Positions 6,537-60,384 of a DNA stretch of 64,000 nucleotides are shown here, in pieces (the stretch's first letter is position 1; every line of letters begins with the position of its first letter). The stretch is from positions 273,234,001 through 273,298,000 of the forward strand of contig OZ024740.1 in NCBI GenBank assembly GCA_964016885.1. Direction: 5' to 3'. This DNA is from Eledone cirrhosa. Taxonomy: Eukaryota. The translations under genes and the position numbers were made by a program. The notes under the pieces are model-generated. The model did no database searches. It saw nothing but the letters and a program-made list of their open reading frames with translations, and was not told the origin of the DNA.

Positions 6537-6587
<51 letters not shown>

Positions 6588-6589
6588 AC

Positions 6590-10214: not shown

Positions 10215-10420
10215 ATACTAATACTATAACATAGACCATATTTTAAAAAAATAACGAAATAGAAATTACAGTATAAGGATTTTCAGCTGTGTTATTTGTT
10301 CAATCATTCAATTATACATACTAGCAGAAAAACCGCCCGGGCGGTTTTCTACTAGCATATGTAGTGTGCATATTAGTATAATACGCAAATATATATGCAT
10401 GTTATATATGTAAATTGAAA

Positions 10421-10763
10421 AGTTAATTGAAAATATCTTCTTCGCCCACTTATTTCAGAGAAGGTCGTGGGGGTAGAATCCTTCTTAAACATACCTTCCA
10501 GGGAGTCTGTCAGAAGCAAACATCTCTAACAGATCTAGTTGAATCCCAAAGCGTAACCAGCAAAGCTTATGGATGTTATCCAATTATTTGACTCAGGGTC
10601 TACCTCTGGGTCTCTTGCCGGTTGGTTTTGCCTGTAAAATCTGTTAGAGATGTTTGTTTCTGACAGACTCGCTGGAAGGAGTCTTTGAGAAAGACTCTAC
10701 CCCCCCCCTCCCCCCCCCGACCCTCTCTGAAATAAGCGGGCGAAGAAGATATTTTCAATTAAC
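10421..10763. mobile_element. Fold-back pair of RTE-like LINE 3' ends
   Basis: 10421-10534 is an imperfect inverted copy of 10639-10763. The minus strand through the spacer reads LQAKPTGKRPRGRP..FASDR, a typical RTE C-terminus. A related decayed copy lies at about 62833-63030. Confidence 0.75.
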
Positions 10764-11494
10764 TCTGTGTTGTTTTCTGAATCATGTTAAAATATATTAA
10801 AACTATTAATTGCTTATAGCAGGGGTTGTTAAAAGAAATGTTTTTCAAGATCTAGTGCAGGACGTACAGTTATTTTTCATGGAAGGACTTGAAAATATTT
10901 AGGAGATTTTCGTTAGTCAAATATCCCATGTAAGTGCAAAAGATGATTAACCCTTTAGCTTATAAACCGGCCATATCCGGCCAGAATTCTCTCACCTCTT
11001 CCTGTTCAAATACTGATGTTCAGGTATTATTCTTAAAATAAATAATATTAAAATCTCATAGATTCAATATTATATGAGATAATTATGTGAGATAAAGCCT
11101 TTACCATGAAAATACAATAGTAAATATTAAGTAATATATCATATTAAGTAATGTAGTGAAGAATATTTTCAGACATGTATATTCTTCACAGCATATATAA
11201 ACAGTTACTTGTTATTTTTCTAATCAGGTTCAAGCGTAAGAGGAATATAGATATGTTCAAACTCTTGTTTTGTATGCTTTGTATTCTCTATTATTCTTCA
11301 TAACTTGTGTTAGGATATTAATCAATTTCTTCTTATTTTTTCTTATATGTATATTTCCTGGAGTATACGGTTTCAATAAAGCATCTATATTAGAGTAAAT
11401 AATTAACTGGTAATTCTCCATAAATTCATGTAATATTCTAGCCGCGCTGAAACGTCCGTTGCAATGTATAAATAAATAATAATAATAATAATAA

Positions 11495-11675
11495 TTGTTT
11501 CTACGTTTGGCACAAGGCCAGCAATTATCCAGTGCATTACTGGTACTTTATTTTATCGACCCCGTAAGGATGATAGGCAAAGTTAACCTCGGCGGCATTT
11601 GAACTCAGAATGGCAAGGGCCGTAACACTATACGTCAAAGCATGGCGTCCGACCCTCTACCGATACTGCCAATCC
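11495..11675 (-). mobile_element. tRNA-derived SINE, family B
   Basis: Minus strand: TTGGCAGTATCGGTAGAGGG..TTCTGAGTTCAAATGCCGCCGAGGTTAACTTTGCCTATCATCCTTACGGGGTCGATAAAATAAAGTACCAG..GGCCTTGTGCCAAA. Many other copies in the window. Confidence 0.85.
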
Positions 11676-12343
11676 AATAATAATAATACCCTTGGTTTCT
11701 TATATTCCGAATTTTAAATGCTCTGCTACTGGAACTGTGTTTTATTCATCCAGTTGCCTTTTTGCTCTTGAAGAACGAAGGGCTGAAAAAAGTGCATCGA
11801 GCGTATCTCATCTTACCAACGAAAATAGTAAAGTACTACACTATAACCTCATATATTGTTAACTATAACTTTGTACTTACATGCACACACACTCTTTTAC
11901 TTACATATACACACACATTTCTTCTTAGATTCGTACGGACGTATGATAACACACACACATGCTTACGCACAAGCACAAGTATAGTTATTTTTACAAAATG
12001 CTTTTTTTTTTCATTTCAGCTAGACGCGCTCCATCATCCACTTTTCTAAAAAAATAAATCATAAACAAAACGCCAACACCAACACTTTTGCAAGAGATGT
12101 CAAGATGTGTACTTTTATCTAAAGATATTTTTTCCAATTACAACCTGCCCGTCTCCTCGATCTATCTTATTTCTTATACTTTCGTCTGAGGAAAGACTAG
12201 CGTCCGTAACGTTAAGACCCTCTTCCTGGTATATTAAGCGTTAACCTAATATATCCCTTCCACATACTGTACCGATTGTGTTGTTATTTCTGTTTACCTT
12301 TTACATACACACACACACACACATATATATATGTAATTATATG

Positions 12344-12403
<60 letters not shown>

Positions 12404-12559
12404 TATATATAAGTATATATATGTATATATATATGTATATATATATATATGTATGTATATATGTATACATATATGTATATATATATATATATGTGTGTAT
12501 ATATGTATATATAAATATTTATATATACATATATGTATAGATATGTATATATGCATGTG

Positions 12560-12591
<32 letters not shown>

Positions 12592-12626
12592 TGTATGTGT
12601 GCGTATATATATGTATGTATATATGC

Positions 12627-12721
<95 letters not shown>

Positions 12722-13277
12722 CGTGTGTGTGTAATAATAATATCAACGAGAGTAAATTATACACATTTACTAGGCTCAATGCAACGATAAGATCATGCAG
12801 AACCGGTATATAGTTCCAAAAATCAAAAGTTCAAGGCATTTAATCACTGATAATTGTTTCTTCCCATAATAATATACGACAGACAGCAAATTATTTTATT
12901 TAAGAATTTGCTATTAGTTAGCATAAGCCATAGGGGTAATCAGTGTTTAATTAAAATAAAAAATGATTAATTAAATATCAATACAAATCATTCAAGAATA
13001 ACAGATAACATATATCACTCATCAAATTCAATCAAAGTTTAAATAATATGTTGTCAGTTGTATCAAAATACTTAAAGGTTATTTGGAAGAGTAGCAATTT
13101 TCCCAAAGTGAATCGGAATTCATAGTTTTATCAAAGCAATGCTCATAATGTGTCAGAACAATCTATTCAATTTAACAGGGTTCAAGTTGAAAGATTTTAC
13201 TGCAGGCCTATCATTATATCAGGAACCATGAAGTTATACGAACTGAATATATATATATACATACACATATATACATA

Positions 13278-13379
<102 letters not shown>

Positions 13380-13845
13380 TTGTTGTAAGGAATCAAATAG
13401 ACCAGGATACAAATTCTAATTTAGTCCAGAAATAGCAGTCGAAACGGCTTGAGCTATCCGATATCTGCATTGCTTTATTGTACTACAATAAAACTTACCT
13501 CCTACATATATATATAAGGAAAACAGATTAAATCTAAAATGCAACTGGAGTCTTTTTGAGAATATTTATTTTGTTCCTTTATTGGTATCGCAGTTATTAT
13601 CCTTTTCAAAAGTAGAATTGCGATTGTAGGTTTGTGGTTTTTCTCGCCCTTCAAACCCTTCATCTCAATTCTACTTTTGAAAAGCATAAGAACTGCGAAA
13701 CCGGTAAAGGAACCAAATAAATATTCATAAAAAGACTCGGGTTGCATTTTCGAATTCATCTTTTTTCTTTATACTTTCACTCGTGTGGGACATCTCGTTC
13801 TTTTTTCACTTTGGAAAAAAACCCTCATTTTCTAATAAATATATA

Positions 13846-14262
13846 TATTGTTATACTTTGAGGGGGTCGTGTTGCCAATAAGAAACACACGCACCAGTTA
13901 CTTTCACTTCAATTTATTATAAATTAAATTTATAAATTTAGGAATTTATAAATTTCCGGTTGGTTGGTTGGTTCCACAACAAGACGATTGTTCATATATT
14001 GTCAAAGTTCTTTCGTGACACATTATGTGACCTCTTCAGTGACTGGGATTCTTTTCTTTGTTTTTGTGCCTCTCCTTTATTCTGTCCTACGCCATCTTGT
14101 TTCAACAAGATGGCGTAGGACAGAACAAAGGAGAGGCACAGAAGAGAAACTGCTGGTACGTGTGTTTCTTATTGGCAACATGACCCTCCCAAAGTATAAC
14201 AATATCGGTTTCAACACACGTTTTCAGATAAAGAATCTTGCTAAACAAATTCAGAAACGAAA
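13846..14262. mobile_element. Non-coding fold-back element carrying a hammerhead motif
   Basis: Outer inverted repeat about 13846-13897 vs 14154-14205, inner hairpin about 14065-14140, and an HHR motif on the minus strand. A related fragment lies at 18981-19125. (TA)n flanks. Confidence 0.65.
14001..14043 (-). ncRNA. Minimal type I hammerhead ribozyme
   Basis: Minus strand: GTCA-CTGAAGA-GGTCACATAATGTGTCAC-GAAA-GAAC-TT-TGAC. Stem I GTCA/TGAC, cleavage triplet CUU. Confidence 0.65.
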
Positions 14263-14448
14263 TATATATATATATATATATATAAATTAATATGTAAGTG
14301 ATGAAACACAGATACCAACACATCTGTATATATATTGCAAAAGAAAGGTTTAGCCAGATTGAAGTATACTAATTATTATACTACAGTTTGTCCACATCGA
14401 TTTAAAATAATAAATCAACGGAGACGAACTGTATTGCCAAAGGGCCGT

Positions 14449-14575
14449 GATGTTTAGACACATTTAAATTTCAAAATCAAACCTGTTCCGTAGATAAGTT
14501 TAGACTTTAAGATCCAAATATGTTTCGAGTTAAAAAGTATAGGAATATCATGTCCCGCACTCCTCAGTAAACATC
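14449..14575 (-). ncRNA. Type I hammerhead ribozyme with extended stem III (left-arm copy)
   Basis: Near-identical reverse complement of the 14910-15037 motif. Confidence 0.7.
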
Positions 14576-14909
14576 CAGAGACAAATTGATATGCTTCACT
14601 TCTAAATAATTTAAAAGACTGCGTGGCGCACATGGCTTTACAGTATCTAACTAGTCTCATAACCGTACTGCTAGAAATAACAGTCGTATATATGGGACGG
14701 TTTGCAGCTCAAACTAGGAGCAGTTAAAATTAATAAGGTAATGAATTCTTTTACAATGGAATCAGCTCGAATGAGGAAATCCCCTGAGCAGTGTATAAAT
14801 TAATATGTAAGTGTATAAATTAATATGAGACTAGTTAGATACTGTAAATCCATGTGCGCCACGCAGTCTTTTAAATTATTTAGAAGTGAAGCATATCAAT
14901 TTGTCTCTG

Positions 14910-15037
14910 GATGTTTACTGAGGAGTGCGGGACATGATATTCCTACACTTTTTTAACTCGAAACATATTTGGATCTTAAAGTCTAAACTTATCTACGGAA
15001 CAGGTTTGATTTTGAAATTTAAATGTGTCTAAACATC
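14910..15037 (+). ncRNA. Type I hammerhead ribozyme with extended stem III
   Basis: Stem I GATGTTTA/TAAACATC (8 bp), core CTGAGGA (14918-14924), GAAA (14960-14963), stem III ACATATTT/AAATGTGT, GUC site (cleavage after 15029). The base of stem II is weak. Confidence 0.7.
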
Positions 15038-15281
15038 ACGGCCCTTTGGCAATACAGTTCGTCTCCGTCGAATTATTATTTTAAATCGATGTGGACAAAC
15101 TGTAGTATAATAATTAGTATACTTCAATCTGGCTAAACCTTTCTTTTGCAATATATATACAGATGTGTTGGTATCTGTGTTTCATCACTTACATATTAAT
15201 TTATACACTGTTCAGGGGATTTCCTCATTCGAGCTGATTCCATTGTAAAAGAATTCATTACCTTATTAATATATATATATA

Positions 15282-15856
15282 TAAAATACGTATTTAAGAA
15301 AGCCACAACAATGCAGAGGGAAATCTCGAGGTAGGAAGTGAAAGATAGATAGGAAAAACAGGTGAAAGTGAAAATTGAGAGAGACAAAGATGAAAACAAA
15401 ACAAAGGTAGAAGGGTTACCGTAGTAGAGATTTAATCCCAATATTTCGGGCTCACGCCCATCAACGGGGGAAAGTTCCAAAAGGGGGGGGAACAGGCCAA
15501 GCGGAGAAAGTTGTGATGTCGTTAAGACAGGAATGCCGTTATGGGGAGAAAATTATTTAAAATTTAAACGTTTAAATTTTAAATAATTTTCTCCCCATAA
15601 CGGCATTCCTGTCTTAACGACATCACAACTTTCTCCGCTTGGCCTGTTCCCCCCCTTTTGGAACTTTCCCCCGTTGATGGGCGTGAGCCCGAAATATTGG
15701 GATTAAATCTCTACTACGGTAACCCTTCTACCTTTGTTTTGTTTTCATCTTTGTCTCTCTCAATTTTCACTTTCACCTGTTTTTCCTATCTATCTTTCAC
15801 TTCCTACCTCGAGATTTCCCTCTGCATTGTTGTGGCTTTCTTAAATACGTATTTTA
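15282..15856. repeat. Spacerless palindrome, about 288-bp arms, centred on AAACGTTT (15569/15570)
   Basis: Arms are reverse complements except one indel in a G/C run. The same peptide is predicted on both strands (ORFs 15196-15480 minus and 15658-16056 plus). Confidence 0.95.
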
Positions 15857-15893
15857 CACATTTCACAATGCTTCAAGCAAACTTTAACACCCT

Positions 15894-16015
<122 letters not shown>

Positions 16016-17669
16016 ATATTAAAGTTGTTTCAGTAATATTATACGTACTATACTAATTATTTAATAATCAATAATATCTAGTTATATATAAGAAGAATAT
16101 ATTACTAGCAAAGTAAACAAATATTTACGAATTTCAGGAGAGTATTTCAGAGGTTAAAATGGTTTAATTTAATGAGTTGAACTGGTTTAACTCATAGTTA
16201 CAAAGTACTATAGTTACTATAGTTACAAAGTAGACTTTTAATTTTATATTATTTGAAGAGTATTGCTATGTATATATATTTGAATTAATATATGTTAAAC
16301 ATTTACACTTAACTTTGCCTTTCATCCTTACGGGGTCGATAAAATAAAGTACCAGTAATGCACTGGGATAATTACTGGCCGTTTGCCAAACGTAGAAACA
16401 ATTATTTATTTAGTTCAATCATAAAGGGGGTAAGATGATGTAGGATAATCTATTATATTTAATAAATTAATATATCCCGTTAATAATGTATCGGTATATC
16501 TTATTAATAATGTATTAGTATATTTTACAATATATAAATGTGGGATATTACTTATTGATTATGACAATACAATGAACGTAACATAAAATTAATTGTAGTT
16601 GCCATAAGAAAATAAATCTAACTATTTAATATATATTCTCCTCTGAAATTATCAAAATTATGACAACGAATATAATGAAGCATCCCCATCAACTATATTT
16701 AAGTATTTATTATTATTAAGGTTAACTTTGCCTTTCATCCTTACGGGGTCGATAAAATAAAGTACCAGTAATACACTGGGTATTTTTGGCCTTGTGCCTA
16801 ACGTATAAACTATTATTATTAAGGTTAAATGAAGTGGATATATAAGATAGTATATTAATTAAACAAATGTATCGTATAATCTGTATAAACCTTAATAAAG
16901 ATTCAGTATAAGGTTAAGCATTAGTTGAAGAAGGTTGTTAATTGACATTGTTGGGTTACACGATTGTAGATTTGTATGAGGACATATGGAAGATATTACT
17001 GTTCTTTTATTTAAAATGTTCGCGTTAGAATTAATAATTAGTTGGGATTTACATCGGGCAGCACTTAGTCAAACCTCGGGCTTTCAGCTTCTTCATATTA
17101 GCTTTAGAATACTTAGTTGTTGAAAAACAAGGAGGGATAATCTAGTTATTCTATTGTTATATTTATTTATATCTGCGCGGAGGATCTACCTAATATTCCC
17201 CAATTCAGTGTATATAGTATGTTCTTATCTTTTAATTCCTAAATAAAACTAGATAAAACTAGCAAGTAATGTCGTGTCATATGTTTTAATTTAGGTTTTC
17301 TAAAAGAATGAAGAGGGGAATTAAATCTTGTTTGAAACTATTTGACGAAACTTCTATGTAAAGTTGAGATTGTCGAGAGGTGTTAAAAGTACAACCATCT
17401 ATATACTACTAAAACTCTGTGTGCTTGTCTGTAATTTTATACAGCCAAAACGGCGCATAATGGAAAACTTCTTTGAAAGGAAATTACCTTTGAAATGGGA
17501 ATACAAATAGAATGAAACAAGTTTCGCGTATATCGGAGAAGGGGTAGTCAATATAAAGGGTTTGTCCGGGTGCCTTCATAAATAGAGAGAGAGAAAGAGA
17601 TAGATATTGTGAGAGAGAAGATTTAAAGATAGACATAGGGAGAGAGAGATAAGAAGACAGAGAAGGAAC

Positions 17670-17715
<46 letters not shown>

Positions 17716-17781
17716 GAGAGAGAGTGAGAGAGGGAGATAAGCAGACAGAGAACGAAAATGGAAGATATATATATATATAAC

Positions 17782-17930
<149 letters not shown>

Positions 17931-17949
17931 CAGAGAACGAAAATGGAAG

Positions 17950-18036
<87 letters not shown>

Positions 18037-18321
18037 GAGCTGGTGTTCTTGAATGAAAGTATAACAGGTGAATTCAAAGAATCGAATACAGCATTACTCT
18101 ATCTCGATCGAATTTCGTGACTGAATATTAAGTCATATGTATCATATAACTTGTGTTAGGACAGGATGTGTGTAGCGAATATTTCCTGCTAAACAGGAAG
18201 GGCTTCTAAGCGTGTGTGTGTGTTTATATATATGTGTGTGTATGCCTGTGACCAGTATATATTGGTCACAGACACACACACATACACCCACACGCACACA
18301 CACATACATATAAATAAATAG

Positions 18322-18356
<35 letters not shown>

Positions 18357-18359
18357 ATC

Positions 18360-18932
18360 TAGGGCGGGTAAAATTCCCGAGATCCAAGGACGAGTTCTCT
18401 CCAGCGGTCTCTGTCCCTCATTATCGCTGCCATGTCCTGCGTCTCCAACAGACCAGTGTCTATCCTTAGGGCATCAACATGCGTTAACCTTGGTCTTCCT
18501 CTTCCAGTGTGTCCATGTAGGGGCTCCCACAGGAGCACTGAGTGCAATATCAAATCTGGATGTTGGTGAGCATGTCCAGCTAACCTCAGTCTCCACTGTG
18601 TCACTTTTGAGCTGACGTTTGGGAATACGGAAGATTGTGAATACGGAAGATGATGTGGTTGAGAGGACGAGCAAAGCCTGGGCGGCGTGCCACAGCTTGA
18701 GATCGGTGTGGAAGTCGGACATTTGTAAAGACCTGACAATCCGCCTCTTCATTGCTGTAGTGGAGTCTATGCTGCTGTACGGGTCTGAGACTTGGACACT
18801 GACCAAGAAATTCACTCAGATGGTGGATGGGTGCTACACGAGAATGCTGAGGATGGCTCTGAACATTAATTAGAATACACTGAGGGAGGATGAAAAACTC
18901 AGAGCTGTATGGGAGCCTTCCAAAAGTCAGCT

Positions 18933-18935
<3 letters not shown>
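18360..18935. mobile_element. RTE-type LINE fragment with 5' inversion (same family as 6590-7915)
   Basis: About 18360-18622 is the LINE 3' end on minus (RLRLAGHAHQHP..GRGRPR). About 18630-18935 is the adjacent upstream part on plus (LLYGSETWTL). CCAAA(A/C)GTCAGCTCAA is present in both parts. Confidence 0.85.
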
Positions 18936-18982
<47 letters not shown>

Positions 18983-19240
18983 CGTTTCTAAATTTGTTTA
19001 GCAAGATTCTTTCACTTCAAATAATTATAATAAATTTATAAATTTATTATAATAAATTGAAGTGAAAGCAATGGTGCGTGTGTTTTTTATTGGCAACATG
19101 ACCCTCCCAAAGTATAACAATATATATATATATATATATATACTAGACCCCATGTTGGGTCACGGTCACTTAAAAATAATTTTTCAATAATTATAATATA
19201 CAAAGATATGTATATATTTTAAAATGAAATAAGTAGACCC

Positions 19241-19323
<83 letters not shown>

Positions 19324-19476
19324 TGGTTTATATATAAATAATAAAATAAAAATGGTTTTATAAACATAGTTTCCATTTATTAATATCATTGATATTATAC
19401 TCCAGAAAAACCTTCGAATCTGTTATAAATAAATTTGTTGATTAACCAACTAATTAAATATGTCCTTATCTCTTTG

Positions 19477-19546
<70 letters not shown>

Positions 19547-19600
19547 TGGGTGTCTATGACCTATAAACACTGGGCAAAGACACACACACACACATATATA

Positions 19601-19767
<167 letters not shown>

Positions 19768-20129
19768 GGTGAAGAGGGGGAAAGAGTTTGTTGGTTTAAT
19801 GAGAGAGGGGGAAGTATGAGATGAGAGAGCCTGAGGTATATAGAAAGGGGGAGAGAATCTGTTGCTGACGGAGGAAGAGGGTAATGTATTTGTACCATGG
19901 TGTGGGAGCATTCTGCTTCATAACAGATGATAGATTCTTTATACTACTGTAGCATTGAGGTGGAGATCTAGGGGAAGAAATCATCTATACGAATCACCAC
20001 ACATTTCCCTGACGTCACATAAAATTCGACGTGTACTTGTTATAGTTTAATTGCTATAAGTTAATGTTTTAATTCGCGTCTCTTACTCCACTGTTTAGCC
20101 TATGTACAGGTCTCAATATTTAGCTTCTA

Positions 20130-20640
20130 CTTTGGAATAGCTCTTTGTCCTGCACCGTAACTAATTTGACTTCCTTCATAATTAGTTGTGCAATCATTCT
20201 GTCACTTTAATAACTGGATCCGTCACATTTATTCCTTTATAGAGTTTATAGTTTCTCTTTTCTAGTCCATCACGTTCTTCCTTGAAACATTTAGTAATTG
20301 TACTGCCTCGCCAATCAGTCAATGTGACAACATTATGTATACATGTGTTGATTATGCGAGAGATTCGTTTGACTTCTGCTTCACCAGATAATTTCAGTAT
20401 CTCAGCCTTTTCACACTTCATCCGCCTGATTGTTTCTTTGACAATATAACTGTCACCTGCTGTGTGTAGTTCCTCTTTTTTTCCACTCATTCTCCGCATT
20501 CATTGACCTCTCAGTACATTTGCAAGCCACTTTCCTCTGAGTATTAGTAAGGCTAAATGCAACTATGTCATCGCGAAAAAACATTTTCTTGATAATATAC
20601 TGATTTCCTGTGACATTATTTTGCAATCTGAACACCTTAC
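20130..20640 (-). mobile_element. Highly decayed non-LTR retrotransposon RT fragment
   Basis: Reads KETIRRMKCEKAEILKLSG..DWRGSTITKCFKEERDGLEKRNYK..KGINV, resembling LINE RT domains 0-1. Confidence 0.6.
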
Positions 20641-21711
20641 ACCTTTAATAATAATGTGGCAGCACATAGACAAACCTCGGGCTTTCAGCTTCTTCATATA
20701 CTATGTAAACCTGATGCATCACTTCATCTTTAGCTATATTATATTGTTCTTTTCTTCTCCCATGTTTTAGTCTTCCCATGCCTGTCTTTTGGCAAAACTA
20801 GCTGTATATACAGTACCGTCCCATCACGAGATTACCATTCGTCTGCCTTGTACCTGCCTGTTGCACGTTACCATGTAGAAACTTCTAACTGTCTTCTGTG
20901 TTAACTGTATCTATTTTTTGTTCCTCATCGTACACATTATGTAGAATATTTTCGAACTTATATTCAACAGGTTAAATGCCCTGGAATTTGTTCTGGCTCA
21001 CTGTTCAAGTAAGGCTTAGATCAACTTTATCCGTTCAACCTTCTGAGGCTCGTAAAGAAAATACCAGGCCAGTCCAGTCCAGTAATGGGGTTGATTCTTC
21101 CTCAATAACTTTTTCACTCTAAGCCCTCTCTATCCCTATCATTTTTCTTCCTGTGTGAGAAATATACTTTGAACAGATTTGGTTTAACATGGATAAAAAA
21201 GGTGAATTGTCAGGACTGCACTTACAACTCCATCAGGAGTGAAGAGTGCTTTCTTTCTGTATTCTTTACAAGATAGACTATAGTCGTAGATAAAGTATGT
21301 CTGGGGTACACATTATATAATGTAGTACTAGATATTCTGTATCTAGTGGACATATTGGATAGCATAGTCTTTGACATATGTCCGACAACTAAAATATAGG
21401 TGACCACACCCCCAATGGTTTTTATCACATTTCTATGACAAGTGTTGACTTGGGAAACAATAACAACAACAGCAACAAACAACATATTAGCAACAGGGCA
21501 GCAACAACATTTTAACGACAACAGCAACACACCAGAAGCAGCAAAAATAGAGACAAAAGCAGCAACAACAATAACATATTCTAATAATAAAAAACAATTT
21601 CAGCTGCAGCTGTCGCATATATTACAACAACAACAACAACACCAACAACAAAAACAAAAACAACAACAACAGCAAGAACAACAACAGTAACGAAAAAACA
21701 TCACCAATAAC

Positions 21712-22010
21712 ATGATCATACACTGTGGAAACATCAACAACATCATTATACACTACCAATACACAACAAACAACAACTGCACCATCATCACCAACACAAA
21801 CAACCCCAAAACTAACACGAACATCAACACCAACACAAGCACTATCATCACCAACACCAACAACAGCACCATCATCACCAACACCAGCACTATCATCACC
21901 AACACCAACACCAACACCAACATCAACACCATCATCACCAACACCAACACCAACACCAGCACCATTATCACGAACTCCAACACCAACACCACTACAACAA
22001 CAGCAGTAGC
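21712..22010. repeat. Degenerate CAC/CAA/CAT trinucleotide repeat
   Basis: Direct reading. Confidence 0.85.
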
Positions 22011-22573
22011 AGTAGCCTCAGTAACAAAACTTGACAGAGGCTACTTACGCAATATAATGTGGATTTTGCAATTACAGACATCTTTTATTGAAATAGTACA
22101 GGAAAAGTGAATAATAAGGGCTAAAACTTATAAGAATTCCTTACTTTTTCGAGAGAATTTCATTTCCTAATATTAAGTCAGTGGTTTCTTTGCATTCTTT
22201 ATATCGTTTTATTCCAATTCTCTACTTCCCATTCACCCATCAAACATTTGGTTCTCTTTCTGTTACCCTATCAATTCATCTATCTACATATATTTTCTCT
22301 CATTTTCTTTCTCTCTGTCTTTCTCTTCCCATACACCATATGTGTGTGTATGTATGTATGTGTGTATGTATGTGTGTGTAGGTATGTATCTATGTTTGTA
22401 TGTGTGTATGTATGATTGTGAGTATATACGTGTGTATGTACCTGTATATATGCATGTCATGTCTGTTGGCATTCTTTTTAGTCTGTCTCCGCATATGCCT
22501 CTTATATATGAATACACACACACGAACACACACACACATACTCACACACACACACATACATTATCTCACACAC

Positions 22574-22639
<66 letters not shown>

Positions 22640-23043
22640 CATACATATAATATATATATATATATATAAATATATATACATAATATATATATATATATAT
22701 ACGTATATATATATATTTGTAAGTATGTATGTATAATGATATATGTATGCATATATGTGTGTGAGTTTGTGCACACACACAAACACTTAATACCTGTATA
22801 TTATTGGCTGGATATTTCTTTGTCATAATTCAACTACTTGTGTACCCTCAATACGTCTGTGCTGCATCTATGTCTGAAAGACTGACATAAAGAATCATGG
22901 CCGATATGTTCAAAGTTTCCTCTGCTGTCGATACACACAGACATAAAATAGGCACTAACACACACATATACCCCACCACACACACAGACACAAACACACA
23001 CACACACTCACATACACACATACAGAGACATATATATATAATT

Positions 23044-23604
23044 AAATATGGGAAAAGCAAACAAGTTAAGAAAAAATCTTCACTTAATTTAATGTCCCTA
23101 CTGCAGTTTTATTGGGAAAATAACGATACTCCGAGGAGAGTATCACGAGAAATCCCAAATCGTCAGGAGACTTTCTCGGTCCAGAAATAAAATTCAAGAC
23201 AAGAATTCCCAGCCGTTCGTTGTCAGTGAAAATGTCGAATGAAATGACTGTCATGTGACAACTGACCAGCAGGAGGGTAGTAGAAGTGGACAATGGCAGG
23301 CTACGTACTACTAGAAAGAAGTTTGATTTCGCCAAATGTTCACTCTACCATTAGAGAGTGTATTATATATTAAATGTAGAAGTATACATATCCCTACACG
23401 AGTATAGATACAAGTATAGATACATACATACAAAGTGCCCAAATTATACTGAGTCTGGTTCTATGAAACAGTTAATAAAATTAACAGAGTCAGAGCCTAA
23501 TAAAATCAAATATGGGAAAAGCAAACAAGTTAAGAAAAAATCTTCACTTACTCACTTTAATGTCCGTACACGGAGTATCGTTATTTTCCCAAGGAAACTG
23601 CAGT
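23044..23604. mobile_element. Retrozyme-like 464-bp unit plus short inverted arm
   Basis: AAATATGGGAAAAGCAAACAAGTTAAGAAAAAATCTTCACTTA occurs at 23044 and 23508. 23571-23604 is an inverted copy of the HHR 3' half. Preceded by (TA)n. Confidence 0.75.
23094..23171 (-). ncRNA. Type I hammerhead ribozyme (G12 mutated in this copy)
   Basis: Minus strand: GTCTC-CTGACGA-TTTGGGA..TCCCAAT-AAAA-CTGCAG-TA-GGGAC, with palindromic stem III ACTGCAGT. The inverted arm keeps GAAACTGCAGT. Confidence 0.7.
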
Positions 23605-23689
23605 GGTTAAAGGATTTGACGATACATTTACTCTGCACTGCGCAGGAGCAATCCTTGAAGACAAATTAAATCAATTACCATATTGTGGT

Positions 23690-24340
23690 AAGACTAATGA
23701 TACCCCTTTGTGTCAGATATCTGGAGTTAAAGGAGAGACTAAAGTCACATAGTAAGCGAATACTCCAAACTTGCTCAAAGAGAATAGAAGAGATACACTG
23801 ATAACATATAATAAATAGCACACCTCATCCACAGGACGCTTTGTGATAAGTTTGGGCTTGAGAGAGCTAAGACATGGTGTGGACATACCCCAACTCGTGT
23901 CATTGGTAATGTAGATGTCAATCCGTTGTGGAATATTACAATAAAAGTGACAATATCATTAAAACAAGGAAGCCAGGCATAGTACTTTTCAATAAGAACA
24001 TTAAACATTTTGTTATATATATATAGTATTATATATTGTTTTGTTGCAGTTCCTGGTGACAACAGATTAGAGGAAAAATAGGGGAAAAGATACACAAGTA
24101 TGGGGATCTCAAACGGGATGTTGCCACATCATCGCAAATAAAAAATATAATAGAAATATTGCCTGTAGTAGTTGGAGCACTTGGAACAGTTTCAAGGAAA
24201 TTAGGGGATTGGTTTGGAAAAAGTGGAATAGAAATAAAACAGAGACATACATATAACAAAAGACAGCAAGCATTTTGAAAAAAAAAACTTAGAGACTTGA
24301 AGGAAGCCTTGTTATGACCCACTGCCAGCGTGTATGAGAT
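23690..24340 (+). mobile_element. Decayed R4/Dong-like non-LTR retrotransposon 3' region (restriction-like endonuclease domain)
   Basis: Fragments read HIVSEYSKLAQRE..VAVPGDNRLEEK..KIHKYGDLKRD..ILPVVVGALGTVSRKL, matching the RLE-clade C-terminal motifs EK..KY.DL and P.VVGALG. Confidence 0.7.
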
Positions 24341-25395
24341 GATGATGATAATAATATGAAGTTGATTAAGGAGAAGAAGAAGAGGAAGATTTAAAATAAT
24401 AAAAATCAAGGAAGATTCGGGGATTCAAGCATCTTCTTGCACATACATACACAAATAATAGACTGAGTCACATTCACAACTAAACTGCAACATTTTGAAA
24501 CAAACAGAATGTTTTATTGCTATTGAAGTAACCGTGGTTATTTCTTTACTTATTCCTTCGAGGAAATAATCGGGTTCAATTTTGTAATAGACGTATGAAA
24601 CTAGACATATGAAATGAAATTGCTTCTGTGGGACCGACATTCTTACACATTCTTTACTCCTCTGTATTCTTCTTAGACATATTAGTTGCAATCAAATTAA
24701 CTGAAAATATGATATGATCCATTTTTGTTGTATGTGAGCGTTTTTTGTTAATTTCCAAGTACATTTATATGCATATATATATGTGTGTATTTTCATACAG
24801 GTTCACTTATACGTGGTTGTAGTGTATATGTGCGTCTTGGATTTAATGCTTGTGTGTACGTACGTTTGAGATATTGGTGTTTGTATGGCAAGAAGGTTTC
24901 CTGTTTTATGAAGGGAGGCGAAAAGGAGAGTGGAAAAATACAGCGAAAGTATGGTTCAATGGAAAGTTAAAATATATGAACAAATAAATGTATAAACGAC
25001 AACATATAAAAACTAAAATAAAAAGGCTTCTCCATTTTCATAATGTTATAAAACATTATGAACTATTTTCCATAATACTTATGCTTAATTTCAGAACAAT
25101 TTACGCATGTGTGATTGAATATGTGTGTGTGTAGATGAATGTAGACAAACATATATGCACATATATATATATATATTAGAAACCACTTTTCTTTTAGATG
25201 TGTATTATTAAAGACACAGCTATGTTCAAGTTTTCATTTTTTAAATAAGTTTTTAATTTCATATTTCTTTACGGGTCCTTTGCAGCTCTTTTCGCATAAT
25301 AAACCCATAGTCAACATATCTAGACGTTGTGTATGCATATGTATCCTTCATATATTTTAGATTATATTACCACCATATATTTTAAAAGAGAATAT

Positions 25396-25852
25396 TTGTT
25401 TCTAATTTAGGCACAAGGCCAGCAATTACCCAGTACATTACTGGTACTTTATTTTATCGACTCCGTAAGGATGAAAGGCAAATTTAACCTCGGCGGGATT
25501 TGAACTCAGAATGTAAAGGGACGTAACTATGCTAGAAAGCATGGCGTCCAAGTAGGCACGTCATTGACAAAGACTAGTAGAAAACCCCTGAAACTAGTGT
25601 TACACTCTTCTCGCGCGTTCTCTTTCCACACACACACACACATATATATATACATATATATATATAGAGATAGATATAATAATAATTATTATTTCTACTT
25701 TTGGCACAAGGCCTGCAATTATACCAGTGTATTACTGGTGCTTTATTTTATCGACCCCGTAAGGATGAAAGGGAAAGTTAACCTCGGCGGAATTTGAACT
25801 CATGCCATAAAGGGCCGTAACACTTTGCTGCAAAGCATGGCGTCAGACCCTA
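25396..25852 (-). mobile_element. Two adjacent family-B SINE copies (about 25396-25550 and 25690-25852)
   Basis: Both show GGCACAAGGCC..CTGGT(A/G)CTTTATTTTATCGAC..GTAAGGATGAAAGG..AACCTCGGCGG.ATTTGAACTCA. Confidence 0.85.
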
Positions 25853-25890
25853 ATATAAGGAGGATTTGTTAAACCTTCATTACGTTTATT

Positions 25891-25983
25891 GAGTGGTGAC
25901 GCGCGTTTCGCTATCGATCAGTCCAAGGTCCGTTCTGTATCGATCTGGCCCGGCTGTGGAATCAAAAGCTCGTCGGACCACTC
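25891..25983 (-). ncRNA. Type I hammerhead ribozyme, U4C core variant
   Basis: Minus strand: GAGTGGT-CCGACGA-GCT..AGC-GAAA-CGCGCG-TC-ACCACTC-AATAAA. Perfect 7-bp stem I, palindromic stem III, GUC site. Confidence 0.8.
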
Positions 25984-25990
25984 CCAGGGT

Positions 25991-26051
<61 letters not shown>

Positions 26052-26097
26052 CATACACACAGACACATGTATATATATATATATATATACGTACATA

Positions 26098-26128
<31 letters not shown>

Positions 26129-26506
26129 GCGTTTTTCATAATCACGCATGATGGTGAACTAGCCTGTTTTAAAATTCCCTTTTTGGCATATTAATCTGTG
26201 ACCTCTGCTGAGGATTGAATTCCAACCGTGACCATCTACACTGAAAGTTTTCATGAAATAGTCTTTTCCAAATTGAAGGATGAGTATTTTAAACTTTATT
26301 TTATCATGAGTTAAGTCTCTATTCACTTTTCCCTGGATTTCACTAAATTCTGTGGATGAATTTATATCCTGATTCTCTTTGAGATGAGTTTGAATTATTT
26401 TCCCCACATCTTACGTTAACTATTTTTCCCATTTTGACGCTATAGTCACTTATATATTATGGAGTGCTGTTGGCTTTTCGCTGCAGTGTTTTCTGTACCT
26501 TTCATT

Positions 26507-26541
<35 letters not shown>

Positions 26542-27074
26542 TACGTACATACATATATATATATTCAATCCAGTATTCAATCCAGTGCCTCTTCCCTCAT
26601 ACCGTGGGAAACCCCCACCGTTTTCTGTTTTCTTCATGTAGCCGTACACACCACGCTTGGCCAATTGTGGATATATTTATATGGAGTGTCTATGATGCAG
26701 GGAGCAAGAAGGCCACTTATCAGATAGTACTCGATGTACTATATCTATTGTCTCTACATATTTTCCAACAACGGATCAAAGAATATATTCTTCTGCTTTA
26801 TCTCACGCAAGCTAGTTACATATTAACCAAATTTCTTTAATATAACTAACCAATGCAATAGAATTGCAGCTATGTTGCACTGTTAAATGATAACATAAAT
26901 AAAAAAATAATATTATCTTCTCTCATCTTGTGTCGATGTGATATTTCATCAACTTTTTACATTGGTTCACATAATAGAAGTAAATAGCTACCATAATGGT
27001 GTAGTCTCTCTCATACATACAGACACACAGATACAATTACTTACACATACACTCAGACTATCTATCTAACTATC

Positions 27075-27857
<783 letters not shown>

Positions 27858-27940
27858 TTTATTCGGTCCTCAAAGTTGCCATTGACTGACCAACGGTCAA
27901 AAATACAGATACAATATAGACACAAACACATATAGATAGT

Positions 27941-52800: not shown

Positions 52801-55468
52801 CACCCATATCAGAATTTCTTACCTCATAGACTCTGTATTAAACGTTTTTTTCACCTATTTTTTTCCTGCAGAACTATAATCATCTCTAACACCCTCTCTT
52901 CTTTCCATTCTTTATCACTTTTTCTTTTCTTCTAGGTGAGTTTTCAAATGCTATGGTTATTGCCCTTTAGTTGGTCTTCTTTTGAACACAGTAAATTGTT
53001 CAATGGTGTTCCATATCTGTCAACTACAGTGTGGCTCCATCAGAGCTAGGCTGGGATTAAACAGCAACAACAACAGCAACAGTAACAGCACTTTATCCTC
53101 AGATTTATGACTATCACTGCCTTATTTTTAAAATGATATCAAAACATTGTTATTGAAAACTAAATAAATGGTCAAGCTGCTACTGACGTGAGTAATTCCA
53201 CAATCATGTTTTTGTTCAGCCCCAGATTAGCCCTGATGAAGCAGACCTATAATACATTTTTTCTGTATGTACTTGTTTCAGTTTTTGGACTAAACCTAGG
53301 CTGGAGAATGTCACTCAAGTATTTTATCGTCAATCCTGTTAGACCCATTAATTCTTGTATTATTTTATTGATTTCTACTTATCTGCTGAAGGTGGTGAAT
53401 TGGCAGAGTTATTAGAACATCAGATAGAATGCTTTGTGGCATTAATTTAAGCTCTCTGCTCCCTGAGTTCAAATCCCATCAAGCTCAACTTTGCCTCTCA
53501 TCCTTTCAGGGTCGATAAAAAAAGTACCAGACTAGTACTGGGGTCGAATCTTCTTCTATATCTATTTCTCACTTCCATTCTCTCATTCTCTATCCTTCTC
53601 TGGAAGAAACCTTCTGTATTCTGACCCGGAAACAAGATCTGTCAGGTTTAAAAATTCCCATGAAATGCTGTATATGGTGCCCATATTGCTCCCTCACGAG
53701 TTGCATTGTCATACATACTTATAAGATGACTTAAATATTTATTGCCATAAAGGGACACAACTGGACCCAACACCTTACATTGATATAAACAAACACTTCT
53801 TTGCATCATCTGTCTTATTCTATTTTCTGATGAAGGACTAATAGCAAACATTAAGCTACTATAGATGATCATTTCATTATAGTATTGTTCTGTGTTGGCA
53901 ACTGCTAATTCATAATAAATAAAATAGTTTTAATAAACTAAAGTAACATTTTTCTTATACAGATAACATTATGTGCACTTTTCCATTTCATGATTGAGAT
54001 ACACACAAGAAATTCAGTTACTATTTGATTGAGTAATATAACATATCAAGTGTATATGAGTCTCTTGAGAAAGTTCAGCTTCACACTAAAAAGAAATTGA
54101 TCCTATTTTTCCTTACCTAAAGATCCTTTACTAGACTCATCTACTCTGATGTGGTTCAAGCTTCATTGATGATACTTAACCATTTGCCTAAACACTGTAA
54201 GTATTTAGACATCTATATCATTGGGATATCCTTCCCCACAGCCAAGAACAAGATAACTTTTAAAGAATTTGATAATTTCATCAGAAGAAGGCTGTGAATT
54301 GGCAGATTCAGTAAAGCATTGGATAGAATGTCTTGCAATATGTCTTCTGAGTCATTGCTCTCTGATTTCACATCCTGCGAAGATCATAAATAACGTCCCA
54401 TTCCAGGAATAGAACCTTAAACCAGATGCTTTGTGAAATCTGTTTTGGCTCAATGCCTTCTGGTCTCACATTCTACATAATGGTAAAAATCTCATTGATA
54501 GCCTTCTCAACTTCTCTTATAGACAAAGTGAAGGTTTTAAGGTTGGCCACAGCAGATTATGGCACCAGTATTTCTTTGTAATCAGACAGTTGTTCCATAG
54601 ATATAGAGGCCAATCACAGTAATGTTCAAACTCATGGCACTTTATCAACACTAACGAAAGTCATTAGTCAATTACACCAGGGTTTTAGAATCCCTATGAA
54701 CAATAACAACAATTAGGAGGCACGGCCACTAATAACAAGAAGTGGGAAGGAACACACACAAACCTTTACAGGGCTTCTTAGATTGGTAGAAGAAAGGGAG
54801 GAAAGTATTCTCAGATTAACTCTTGACCCAAAAGCTTACAAGAGAATGGCTTTCATCCTTGGCTTATAGCAACCCAGCAACAAGAAGAGCTGTTGAACTG
54901 AATGATAGATTATCTCTACCATATCCTAATATTGTATAAATACCAAATGAACGAAATATCAGGAAATAATTGTATCTGCTATGACACCTTGTCAAAGAGA
55001 CTATTTATTAACATTAGTGTCGGTGCTGTGTAGTAGCAGGAAAGTCTGAATACAAGTTTCATCATCAACAATATCTCAGAAGTCACCATCCTGTTATATT
55101 TTTTCAACATAGTTAAACTAATATATCCTTCCTTTTTAAAAATGTTATGGTGTTATAAGAGAATGATTTGGTTGTTACCTATAGCATATAGAATGTCTGC
55201 TTAGATACTCCATCACTAGGTTGTTAATATTATAATGTTTCTACTTTTGGCACAAGGCCAGCAATTATCCCAGTACAAAATAAAGTACCAGTAATGTACT
55301 GGATTAATTGCTGGCCTTGTGCCAAAAGTAGGCATAATTATTATTGTTGAGCATTCAGCAAGCCTTTTAACTTTTGCTTCAAATGGTTTTAGAATGGTGA
55401 ATATAAAGTTGACTGATTGAAAAGAGAGGAAACATATGCTCAAGACATGTCATATGCTGAGCATTATA

Positions 55469-55569: not shown

Positions 55570-57454
55570 TTTTTTTCTTTTTGGACAACACCATACTATA
55601 TGCAAATTCACTCTAACCAATCCTTTAAAATTGATAATATCATGTTCTCATTGAACTAGTTCTCTTACATAACTACATCATTCAGTATTTTTTAAATGTA
55701 TAATCTATCCAGGATTGCATTATTTTGCCATAAATATAATCTGTTTTTAAAATAGTAAGGGGTAATTTGAGGAAGAATTTGCTGTTGTTTCTAGAAAACC
55801 AAGCAGACATATAGAACCCCTCTCTTTTACGCTAAATTTAATTACAACCTTGTCTTATTACATGTGTTTTGGGTTTGCTAGGATTGTTTGTTATATGTCT
55901 GGATACGATGGGAAAGCCATACCAAAAATAACTTTGTTGCTAAGAGAAAAATACATACGCATATACACACACATACAAATAGAACACTTAATTGCACACA
56001 AAGAAAACCATCACTATTCTATAAAATTGTGAATATATATATACATGAATGTGTGTGTTGTTGTATTGGCTGCATAATTGTGAGCATTAGATGAAACACC
56101 ATGCAATCATCATGCCAGTTCTTTATATTCAAAGCTCAAATCTCACCATGGTTGACTTTGCATTTCCTCATTCTCAAATTCATAAAATACACTATCAGTA
56201 AAGTATGGTGCATAGGTGAAATTATTAGAGCATTGAACAGAATTTTAGCAGCATTTTTTCCACCTTTTTACATTTTCAGTTTACTGGCAACAAAACTGCT
56301 CATAAGCTCTACTTTCTCTTGCTTTCCCTTCAATAACATCTCTATTATAGTTAATAGAGACCTGTAGCCTAGGAAATTGCTTTATTTATGCCTATACTAT
56401 ACAAAGTCAATTTCTAGCCACACATGCCTGGGCAAATATGACCAATGAATGTCTTGGATATATATGAATTACTTACTGTGTGCAGACAATTTCATAGAAA
56501 AGCACACTTGGTTACATCAAACTAAGTATACCATTAGTATTTCTGTTTCCATATTGCTAATTTATTTTCATATATCTATAAGTGTAAACATCCAGTTGAC
56601 TTAAGAAATATCAACAAATTTTGAAATCTGAAATCTAGTCATATCTGCTTTCATATTTTCATATATCTGAAGTATAAAGTTAACCTGACCATGATTTGAA
56701 CTTACTTTCACTCACTTTAAGTATAGGCTCACATGATTGACTATATATAAATGTATATTCATGCATTTGTATATATCGATTTGGTTGTATGTGTATATAT
56801 GTCAATGTGAATGTATGCATGTGAATGTGTTTGTTCATGACTGCGAGTGAGATTGCAGGACCATATGTGAGAGTATTAGATAGAAAGGGTGTGGGGCAAA
56901 GAGGGAGTGAAACAAGATTTGAATGATATATAAAGAGTGGGGAAAAAACTGAAGGACAAAGAAAGGATTAAAAAATTCAGAAAATTGATTAATAGTTAAA
57001 ATTAAAACTTCTAATTAAAAGTTTAGAAATAAACTGCTTCCAATTAGTTTACATTTGACAAATTCAAAATTATAGGAAAATATATTCTCGTTAGGAATAC
57101 ATTATGGATGGAGATAAGGACTTTCATTCAGTAACTCCTTCATTAACAGGGTACTTTAAAATGATTTCAGTTCATTACACTTCTCCAACAAATGACAAAA
57201 CCCCAGATCTCATTTGCTTTCTGAGAGGGGTGGAGCTCATCAGATTTGACCAAGGAAGCAATGTTTCTATCAATCTTTCCATTTTCTAATAATATCTACC
57301 AGTTGCAACTCCTGGCAAAAGGAGCAATATGAAATGATGTGTCTTGCTCAAGGACATAACACATCACCCAGTCTGGAAATCAAACTCACAACCTCACGAT
57401 TGTGAATCAAATGCCCTAACCAGTAAGCCAAATGCCTTCACATTACTCTATATT

Positions 57455-57630
57455 GGTGGATTGGCAGTATCGGTATAAGGGTCTGACGCCATGCTTTGCA
57501 GCAAAGAGTTACGGCCCTTTATGGTCTGAGTGCAAATCCTGCCGATGCTAACTTTGCCTTTCATCCTTACGGGGTCGATAAAAGAAAGTACCAGTAATAC
57601 ACTGGGATGATTGCTGGCTCTGTGCCACAC
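57455..57630 (+). mobile_element. Family-B SINE
   Basis: GGTGGATTGGCAGTATCGGT..CTTTGCCTTTCATCCTTACGGGGTCGATAAAAGAAAGTACCAG. Confidence 0.8.
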
Positions 57631-59901
57631 TTATTTAAATGTGTAGATTAGTTATAATATAGTTTAATTATATATTATAGTTGTTGTTTAGTAACTCATT
57701 AGACCTGACCAAGCAGATCTATGATGAATAACATTTCAGAAATGCTCATCCCCTCTTTCTTGGGTATACTGTGTTTAAGACTACACGTCCAATGTGTTGC
57801 CTCCCTTTGCAATGTACTGAGATCCAATTTGAAGATTTTGCTACTCTTTCTAGCAGTTAGAATGACCATGTAGAATGCTCTCATGTAGAAATACTTGACA
57901 GTATGCATTCATATTTATGGAAATTATTGTTGTTGTTTTTGGTTGATGCTGATAAATCAAATTTATGAGCAAGGACATTCCAGCCATGCCCATAATTTTG
58001 ACATGGATTATGTAGAACTAAATATAAAAGAATGAATGGGTGAAAATACTCATGGATCTCTGTTGAAAATCATGGGTGACGATTTCCGTAATTTAAATTA
58101 ATTCAAGTTAATTAAACATGGAACATATTGGTGATCGAGTCTAGTTCTGTGGACTAAAGTGATAATTCTAGAAATGTTGCCATCGGTCAATCTTTTAAGC
58201 TATACCATCACTTAGTATTCATTCACAAAAGTCCTATGTACCTCAGTTAGTCAAGATCTAGGAAAGAATGATACACACGACTACTGATGAGGTCATATAT
58301 AACTGAGACATGTCTGAAGTTGTCACGGTACTGACTCACTCACCACTGCATTTTCAATTTAATTATATTTAGTTGATTTAAATCATGTGACTATCTCCCC
58401 TGTCTTTCTTTATTCCAATTGGTCGTTAAAATGTATATTGGTTCTTCACATTATGGGTGTAATTTTAATGAATTAAGATTTCTTGGCACACTTAATTATG
58501 TACATTAGAAGGATCAAAACCTAAAACATTCAGAGTAGGTAGAAAAGCTGCAATATCAATCAATTCTTGTGTGAGTGAGCAAAATTTAATGTGGCTTAAT
58601 AGAACAATGGCGAGAGGATTATGGATGGATGCCTTCTTTGTGAAAGTATAGTAAAATGAGATCTTTATAGGCAGCAAAATGGCAGAGTTGTTAGATCATT
58701 GGACTGAGTGTGTATCTTGGTATTTGTTTCAGCTCAGTGTGTTCACAGTTCGAATCCCTCTGTGGTCAACTTTGTTATTCATCTTATTCAGGTTGAAAGG
58801 TAAAGTACCAGTTAAGGGCAGTAAATTGGCAGGATTGTTAAAGAGTTAGATAGGATGCTCTATGGCAGGGGTTGGCAACCTATGGTCAGATCCTGCCCAT
58901 GAAAACTATTGCCAAAGTCTGTGGCATCCAATCTAGCTGTGTTTGTTCTCAGTTCGAATCTTGCCTTCAACAGTCACAAGTTGTGATTGGCAGATAGCAT
59001 CATCCATAAAAAGATCAATAAAAATATTGTTTCCTTGGTCTGATCTGACATTTGCCTTTTTACCTTTCTAACATACTAAATGTAATGACCCAAAACATTT
59101 TGAGTATTTAGAATTACATCTGTAATGAGGGGAATATTATGAGTTTAATGGAAGACAAATCTAAAATGTATATCAACTGCTATTAGAGTCAGTCATACAA
59201 TAAAGGGTAGCTATCATCTCTGACATGGATGGTGGCAATTCCAGTCACAATACAAGCATAGTGAAACAGATGATGCCAAATTCCAGATGACTGAGTGATG
59301 TAAAAGAATTTCACTGAATTAACACTGATAGGCATGAAATTACACAGGGAGGTTTTCTGCATGGAAAACAAATAGTTAAAGTGCTGCAATATATTAATGT
59401 TTATTTAAATTATTAATTAAAATTCTCCCCATATTGAGGAGAATAAATCTAAAGCTTAATTAATACTGGCCAATATATAAATCAATACAATTTTGGATCA
59501 GTCGACCACCTTTCTTGCCCACATTCAATGCTTAATTAATTTTAATTATTCTTAATTAATTTAAACCTACTTAGATTTGGGAGATGGACTCTCCTGAATC
59601 TAAGTAGGTGTATGCTTTGTTGACCCATCTTACCTTAAACATCATAAACACACTCCCATCCCCATTCCACTCCCATTATCAGCACTAATATAACTATGAT
59701 TTTTTTTTTCCATTATACCATCAACAGTTAAATGTATTTAGCAATAGATTGTTTTCTTATATATATACCACAATAATATGCCATGTGCATTTCTTTATCA
59801 TGATATATATATATATATATAGAGAGAGAGATGCTGTGCTGAAGAAGACCCATCCCACCCTTTCAAGCAAGGAAAAGCAGATGTAATATGATGATGATAT
59901 G

Positions 59902-59979
<78 letters not shown>

Positions 59980-60384
59980 TCATCATCATCATTGTTTAAC
60001 ATCCATTTTCTATGCTGGCATGGCTTAGACAGGTTGTTCCATTAGAGGCAAGTTGGGTCAGATGACCATGTCTTGCTCATATGGGACTGTTTCTGGTGAG
60101 ATTTCTCTGGCTAGATGAACTTCCTAACGACAACCACTTTTACAGTGAGTGCTGGGTGATTTTTCCATGACTCCTACATCGCCACTTTACTGTGCAGGCT
60201 GGGTGCTTTTATTTGTGACACCTACATGACCAGCTTACAACATGGGATGGGTGCTTCTTGTCGTGCGTGACACTACCATGATCACTTAACAGTGTGGGCT
60301 GGTTGGTTTTTCTTGTGAAACCTTCATGTCCACTTTACAGTGTGTGCTGCATTTTTAATTAATATTAATATTACATATCTTTCG

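Follow-up and report, generated by a model that had tools for sequence, protein, structure and literature searches.

Tails-out inverted retroelement insertions in a 64-kb window of the Eledone cirrhosa genome

Why do retroelements that have inserted as inverted pairs all point the same way? The question is raised by a stretch of 64,000 nucleotides from the octopus Eledone cirrhosa (assembly GCA_964016885.1, contig OZ024740.1, positions 273,234,001 to 273,298,000), called here the window and numbered from its first base. Its DNA has a GC content of 34%, with many (TA)n runs and many retroelement remains. Inverted copies are found among Penelope-like elements, long interspersed elements (LINEs) and short interspersed elements (SINEs), all three of which are reported to be recently active in O. 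vulgaris (PMC13282606). The original prediction listed nine inverted structures with the left arm on the minus strand and the right arm on the plus strand, so that both RNA 3' ends face outwards ("tails-out"). It proposed that this polarity holds across element classes and that both target strands prime cDNA.

Polarity of the inverted structures

Inverted structures were sought by self-comparison of the window, with partners within 4 kb. The window contains 36 inverted matches no more than 4 kb apart, while each of five block shuffles contains none. Merging of nested matches left 20 structures, with pure microsatellite matches (31364-31531) and separate SINE-type pairs dropped. Arms were oriented by an open reading frame (ORF), by a descriptor for type I hammerheads, by the promoter boxes and the tail of SINEs, or by homology to a copy already oriented. 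The descriptor is our own; its first version gave 7 matches and its second 13 listed matches, and both gave none on the reversed sequence. The SINE promoter boxes were judged against their consensus. ARAGORN found no tRNA, and Pfam gave reverse transcriptase (RT) matches in two of seven window pieces.

Twelve of the 20 structures could be oriented, and all of them are left-minus and right-plus (10421, 13513, 13835, 18360, 18980, 23036, 27858, 32721, 33588, 40477, 47900 and 55237). The two-sided P is 4.9e-4 for 12/12 structures and 2e-3 for 10/10 families. Nine of the twelve are Penelope-type units, and the three non-Penelope cases alone give a P of 0.25. Three further structures (14281, 15282, 42757) lean the same way on degenerate motifs, and five (5117, 36413, 36818, 43021, 51670) are without orientation. 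Tails-in neighbours occur only between separate insertions, at 59830-60040 across an (AT)n run and between the SINEs at 49620 (plus) and 50321 (minus). The tails-out polarity is real in this window.

All nine structures listed originally were recovered at about the same positions, eight of them with the predicted polarity. At 18360 it is confirmed by an ORF, at 23044, 32721, 33588 and 40477 by hammerhead-type motifs, at 55237 by SINE features, and at 27858 by an ORF on the minus strand and a hammerhead-type motif on the plus arm. Least secure among these is 10421, where a LINE-type C-terminal ORF gives the direction and the database search returned no homologue. For 14281-15270 the orientation is not confident, and no hammerhead was scored. 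Four oriented structures from outside the list (13513, 13835, 18980, 47900) agree.

Target-primed reverse transcription anchors the 3' side of an element to the target. Because this side is fixed, any inversion that arises during such an insertion points tails out. A single cDNA that folds back would yield this polarity too, so by itself the polarity does not indicate a new mechanism. Nor is it a new cross-class rule: it is forced by target priming and already in print for Penelope, for which inverted pseudo-long terminal repeats (pLTRs) are known (PMC3846280, PMC8557442).

Two-ended priming and its rivals

We consider two-ended target priming, with joining of the inner cDNA ends, to be the probable main route of the inverted insertions. 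An AT-rich or (TA)n target has the same reading on either strand, and the endonuclease would cut the two. Each target 3' end would then pair with a UA-rich stretch of the RNA and prime a cDNA. For Penelope-type units the two start sites would lie a tail of 30-65 nt apart on a tandem transcript; for LINEs one primer would anneal at the 3' end and the other internally, as in twin priming. Both cDNAs would stop early, and their inner ends would be end-joined with 0-6 nt of homology. Where the two cDNAs cover the same stretch of RNA a palindrome would result, and otherwise a plain inversion. The tails would face out because the outer ends are where copying starts. Cleavage and extension of both strands have been shown with a purified Penelope-like protein, for which two start sites bound the tail (PMC11167929).

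In five structures (33588, 14281, 18980, 47900 and 18360) the arms are non-nested. Since neither arm is contained in the other, a single folded cDNA is excluded for these five. The LINE at 18360-18935 consists of the element's 3' end on the minus strand (18362-18625), the arm primed first, and an inverted upstream segment of the same LINE on the plus strand (18631-18935). An uninverted copy in the window (6586-7915) served as the reference: the left arm matches its 3' end at 90% and the right arm the next-upstream part at 87%. The arms overlap by 16 nt, and a 6-nt insert at the junction is copied from nearby sequence. The element is an APE-RT LINE, with APE and RT both found in its homologue P0042, and we take it from a C-terminal motif to be an RTE. 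Both flanks are (TA)n, which masks any target-site duplication. This structure had been counted as a fold-back, a reading that fails on the different origin of the two arms and their short overlap. By its sequence it is an ordinary twin-primed LINE.

The other four are Penelope-type units. At 33588-34285 lies a palindrome of a tandem unit with hammerhead-type motifs at 33771 (minus) and 34143 (plus), in which the left arm ends in a 40-nt tail and the right arm has 13 nt extra. At 14281-15270 a 514-nt unit is joined to an inverted arm (99%), whose wrap beyond the left end is about 65 nt long, with (TA)n on both sides; the plus strand of the right arm holds a core motif and a hairpin, from which the sense is weakly readable. 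The wrap of the unit identifies the tails of both structures as element sequence. Such tails are accounted for by tandem templates; the LINE cases need no circular or multimeric template. At 18980-19135, a short relative of the 13835 unit carries its tail on the left (minus) and the terminal repeat on the right (plus). At 47895-48227 a relative of the 27858 terminal repeat (minus) is joined to an inverted 41-nt tail (plus), the motif being found on the minus strand of the sister copy at 37461. The arms at 27858 are probably also non-nested.

Microhomology between the arm ends and (TA)n, suggested as a check alongside the original prediction, is present at the outer ends. Over 12 outer ends the TA microhomology has a mean of 2.9 nt, compared with 1.15 nt at random positions, and 9 of the 12 have at least 2 nt (P=5.4e-4). 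At the inner junctions the homology is 0-3 nt in seven palindromic cases and 6 nt in one, and templated bits are frequent. The non-nested arms and the TA microhomology thus support the claim that both target strands prime cDNA, as the best reading of the structures.

The 6-nt case is the LINE at 10308-10764. Its long arm (10308-10644, minus) contains the end of the C-terminal ORF, the 3' untranslated region (UTR) and a terminal hairpin (10315-10363), and it weakly matches a second LINE end in the window. The right arm (10639-10764, plus) is an inverted copy of 10421-10534 with 90% identity, which begins about 113 nt inside the 3' end of the element and duplicates a 114-nt part of the left arm. 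Since the alignment of a family copy extends through 10644, the homology at the inner junction amounts to 6 nt. The whole unit is enclosed by a 21-nt target-site duplication (10287-10307 and 10765-10785, plus strand; 17/21 match), with nulls of 1/300 and 0/300; discrete duplications are reported to be typical of twin-primed L1 (PMC11702581). Reads were compared over 10230-12310, with runs that had been found by 13400-15890. Paralogous contigs cross position 10421 (10338-10460) and extend the element to the left as 3' UTR with the terminal hairpin. The left end, originally placed at 10421, is therefore at about 10308. The idea that both arms end at the LINE 3' end was dropped, because contigs cross this position and the duplication bounds the larger unit. 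The 47-residue piece at 10503-10643 was used to look for homologues, and there was none among 8 candidates; the LINE identity, based on a motif together with weak matches, is presumptive, as is the RTE label. By eye, the second primer shares at most 2 nt with the internal RNA site, in a copy that is about 10% diverged. The insertion can be described as a 5' inversion with a 114-nt internal duplication, a long case of a known class, and cDNA fold-back fits it equally well. Among the 15 of 487 read joints listed, none is a strand change in this LINE.

Several points weigh against two-ended priming as the main route. The ribozyme calls depend on our own descriptor, the second version of which was adjusted after the arms had been inspected. 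Rfam gave no hammerhead among 55 matches for 32600-34300 or among 150 of the 205 matches for the window; those listed are mainly hairpin look-alikes (microRNA models), and none reached the gathering score. Target duplications are significant in only 1 of 11 structures tested, though (TA)n flanks hide them. The ends scored for microhomology were selected because they abut (TA)n, two are from one family, and one end was mis-measured as 0. No listed read or contig in the comparison over 10230-12310 spans an inner junction. At 10421 three letters common to the two arms are not those of most reads, and the nested cases (10421, 23036, 40477, 55237 and 42757) fit fold-back of a single cDNA equally well.

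In such a fold-back, the cDNA 3' end would self-anneal at a short homology, be extended as a hairpin, open and join the other target end. The LINE at 10421 favours it, with 6 nt of junction homology, the right arm nested in the left and the three shared letters, as do the hairpins at the 32721 and 23036 junctions. Inverted duplications by fold-back at breaks are known in yeast (PMC11724301), and self-annealing of cDNA occurs in L1-expressing cells (PMC11702581). Fold-back may account for some of the nested cases. However, the five non-nested pairs are impossible by this route, the other seven palindromic junctions scored have just 0-3 nt of homology, and the yeast duplications are mostly 5-34 bp, compared with arms of up to 656 nt here. 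As the general explanation it is unlikely. Self-priming on an antisense transcript, with a hairpin RNA or cDNA formed before integration, was proposed for head-to-head Penelope repeats with junction palindromes (PMC3846280) and would suit the perfect palindromes at 15282 and 33588. It is a much poorer candidate still: it leaves the TA microhomology at both outer ends and the twin-primed LINE unexplained, and later in-vitro work describes target-primed extension of both strands (PMC11167929).

We give the same low standing to independent side-by-side insertions in shared AT-rich targets, combined with host repair fold-backs unrelated to retrotransposition. Elements are dense in the window, tails-in neighbours exist, and SINE dimers are found in reads both head to tail and head to head. 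The unoriented palindromes at 5117, 36413 and 51670, in host-like or microsatellite DNA, suggest a host process. Yet the arms of the oriented pairs belong to the same family and are joined without flank, one pair lies in a single target duplication, and random neighbours or host fold-backs would not yield 12 of 12. Least credible of all are fold-back chimeras of library or assembly, for which speak the arm identities of 100% at 15282 and 40477 and 99.7% at 5117, and the lack of a listed record across a junction. Many arms are diverged (86-97% identity), and the arms end where the element does and have unlike flanks. For the 10639-10990 arm and flank, one sample gave matching contigs in two runs, each with 1 other letter. 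The identical-arm cases at 15282 and 40477 have tails and (TA)n at both ends.

Penelope-type units, SINEs and neighbouring features

The Penelope-like element at 27857-31362 has coding remains. A 5'-truncated copy on the minus strand (27857-31100) contains a broken RT, a C-terminal endonuclease-like ORF and an Asn-rich region. Adjacent to it lies an inverted terminal repeat on the plus strand (31101-31362); the repeat at 27857-28071 and its counterpart at 31101-31321 are 96% identical. The repeat carries a hammerhead-type motif at 31198 on the plus strand, a predicted ribozyme by our descriptor, which gives none on the reversed sequence. On the right a 42-nt extension, possibly the tail of the element, precedes (TA)n. 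The RT has 41 longer homologues, the best being an Octopus vulgaris RT protein with 64% identity. A relative (P0019) contains RVT_1 together with GIY-YIG at its C-terminus, both slightly below the Pfam cut-off. The C-terminal endonuclease-like piece of the window copy matched no Pfam family; by eye, its motif appears GIY-YIG-like. A SINE 3' fragment (30660-30737) is inserted in the Penelope-like ORF in the opposite orientation.

Eight short non-coding units (13513, 13835, 18980, 23036, 32721, 33588, 40477, 47900) share this layout: a type I hammerhead motif by our descriptor, a (TA)n target, and an inverted arm or tail. A match to the 27858 terminal repeat is seen in the units at 47900, 37461 and 13835, and the remaining ones are without a coding partner in the window. 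The palindrome at 13513-13773 has arms of 86% identity and a motif at 13677 on the plus strand of the right arm. The unit at 13835-14264 has its motif at 14039 (left arm, minus), a central palindrome (14062-14143) and a tail on the right side. At 32721-33443 the arms are 94% identical, with motifs at 32803 (minus) and 33361 (plus) and a 39-nt hairpin at the junction. The structure at 40478-42665 is a 592-nt unit repeated 2.6 times on the minus strand, followed by a 656-nt inverted arm on the plus strand that is 100% identical, with the motif in every copy. At 23036-23604 a 464-nt unit (minus, motif at 23166) is joined to a 34-nt inverted arm. This short arm (23571-23604) ends at most one base from the predicted ribozyme cleavage site, as if it had been primed on a self-cleaved RNA end.

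Among the structures that lean tails-out, the perfect palindrome at 15282-15896 (286/286) lies between (TA)n runs, with a 40-nt tail on the right and a degenerate motif on the plus strand of the right arm. At 42750-42968 a short inverted arm is joined to a longer plus-strand unit, which holds a degenerate motif. Five of ten units searched (25843, 44860, 37461, 61098 and 26128) lack an inverted partner within 3 kb; the one at 61098-61946 begins at (TA)n and is a 616-nt partial tandem. A single high-scoring hammerhead-type motif at 45116 (45105-45195) is likewise without an inverted partner. In the cores at 13677, 40633, 41225, 41817 and 42342, U3-A8 replaces C3-G8, presumably a compensatory pair.

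The SINE structure at 55231-55345 consists of two 5'-truncated tRNA-type copies head to head, joined at 1 nt of microhomology. It is the only one among the LINE and SINE cases with a full 3' tail on both arms, and no significant target duplication was found around it. It is one of 10 SINE loci with at least 84% identity to the 49620 copy. Among the 15 listed read joints one joins opposite strands, at 11676/11676, and is a SINE head-to-head joint; it is present in 11 and 14 contigs and in 136 and 182 reads, with 4 and 3 starts respectively, in two studies. Head-to-tail SINE dimers are commoner (21 and 20 contigs). These joints are no count of polarity, as tails-in joints are under-detected owing to the many family copies that depart from the reference at 11529; they lend weak support to head-to-head SINE insertion. 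Metagenome scans with SINE motifs gave 0 and 4 loci, and none of the 4 resembled the window. Many reads, with loose ends before 11529, include a 3' segment that is missing from the SINEs of the window, at 11484-11680 and at nine sister loci. The ten SINE loci in 64 kb are a deletion subfamily.

The structures without orientation form a mixed group. The near-perfect palindrome at 5117-5746 (311/312, 6-nt loop) lies in host-like DNA; it is not flanked by (TA)n and has neither a ribozyme motif nor a target duplication. It is plausibly either a young host inverted duplication or an assembly artefact, the sole plausible artefact here. The inverted duplications at 36413-36533 and 51670-51883 are centred on or interlaced with (TA)n and are possibly host fold-backs at microsatellites. 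An old 157-nt inverted repeat at 36818-37231 (73%) has inward tRNA-like boxes and resembles a miniature inverted-repeat transposable element. A possible tails-in counter-case because of these boxes, it aligned poorly to SINE heads and is left without orientation.

Other features of the window include a truncated pol fragment of the long-terminal-repeat retrotransposon type on the minus strand (34827-35855; RVT_1, E 2e-28). Directly left of the 47895 unit lies a 2.3-kb array (45543-47885) whose unit is 15 nt long and ACC/ATC-rich, and whose higher-order repeat measures 586 nt. The observed/expected CpG ratio is 0.19-0.33 in 44000-60000, compared with 0.5-0.94 elsewhere, and most young inverted units sit in the CpG-rich part.

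Known and new parts of the pattern

The Penelope part of the pattern, nine of the 12 oriented structures, is a published signature. EN+ Penelope-like elements are described with (TA)n targets, an inverted 5'-truncated copy beside the 5' end and, at one end, a tail of 30-40 nt (PMC8557442). For Penelope the head-to-head arrangement is "most frequently observed", and junction palindromes and Asn-rich inserts are noted (PMC3846280). The window copies agree in all of these features, and also in the partial tandems and the hammerhead motif. Nothing substantial differs: they are mostly short non-coding remnants, and some tails are longer (65 nt at 14281). The 592-nt tandem at 40477 also resembles non-LTR retrozymes, proposed to be non-autonomous Penelope derivatives (10.64898/2026.07.22.740005), in being non-coding and in having a type I hammerhead motif in every copy. 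In the part of that paper covered, an inverted arm is not discussed.

The LINE cases are closest to the twin-primed 5' inversions of human L1 (PMC2912911, PMC11702581). Shared features are the inverted segment, the overlap at the inversion point and an intact target duplication. In L1, 17% of 5' inversions have an internal duplication, with a median of 22 bp (10.1101/2024.08.27.596794). The window LINEs differ in being non-L1, RTE-like and from a mollusc, and at 10421 the duplication is 114 nt with the inverted arm wholly inside the first arm. Inversions of this kind affect about 31% of L1 copies, 1 of 5554 Alu and 4 of 477 SVA with L1-like structure (PMC2912911), and in cultured human cells they occur almost only with L1 and are nearly absent for other LINEs (PMC4245944). 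The inverted Alu and SVA share with 55237 a SINE with an inverted arm, and differ from it in that 55237 has the 3' tail on both arms. Complex repeats with a tail were not observed for non-LTR elements (PMC8557442). The literature search, made without most subscription papers and supplements, found no report of head-to-head twin-primed SINEs or of element inversions in octopus; PMC6007223 and PMC5389967 refer to twin priming in titles of their references only.

The new part is thus the inversion of two non-L1 LINE copies and one SINE, a mild surprise given that vertebrate data call it rare. Of four recognisable copies of these LINE types, two are inverted (10308 and 18360) and two are not (6586 and 62815). 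Together with 1 of 10 SINE loci, these are three events in a single window chosen for its palindromes, from which no rate can be derived.

For the Penelope-like elements, the window illustrates the published signature and ties the two-strand extension seen in vitro to inverted arms. The presence in the short arm of 3' sequence that is absent from the long arm separates two-ended priming from fold-back, and this test is applicable to any assembly. We suggest tentatively, and with more doubt than confidence, that in octopus two-ended priming is routine also for RTE-type LINEs and a tRNA-derived SINE, with AT-rich or (TA)n targets providing two equivalent primers. If this is true, inversion rates would be far above those of vertebrate non-L1 elements, SINE dimers would be primed twice at the tail, and retrotransposition would steadily supply long palindromes as well as double-stranded RNA. 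If inversions of octopus RTE LINEs and SINEs are common, twin priming would be no peculiarity of L1, and the symmetry of the target would be a testable cause.

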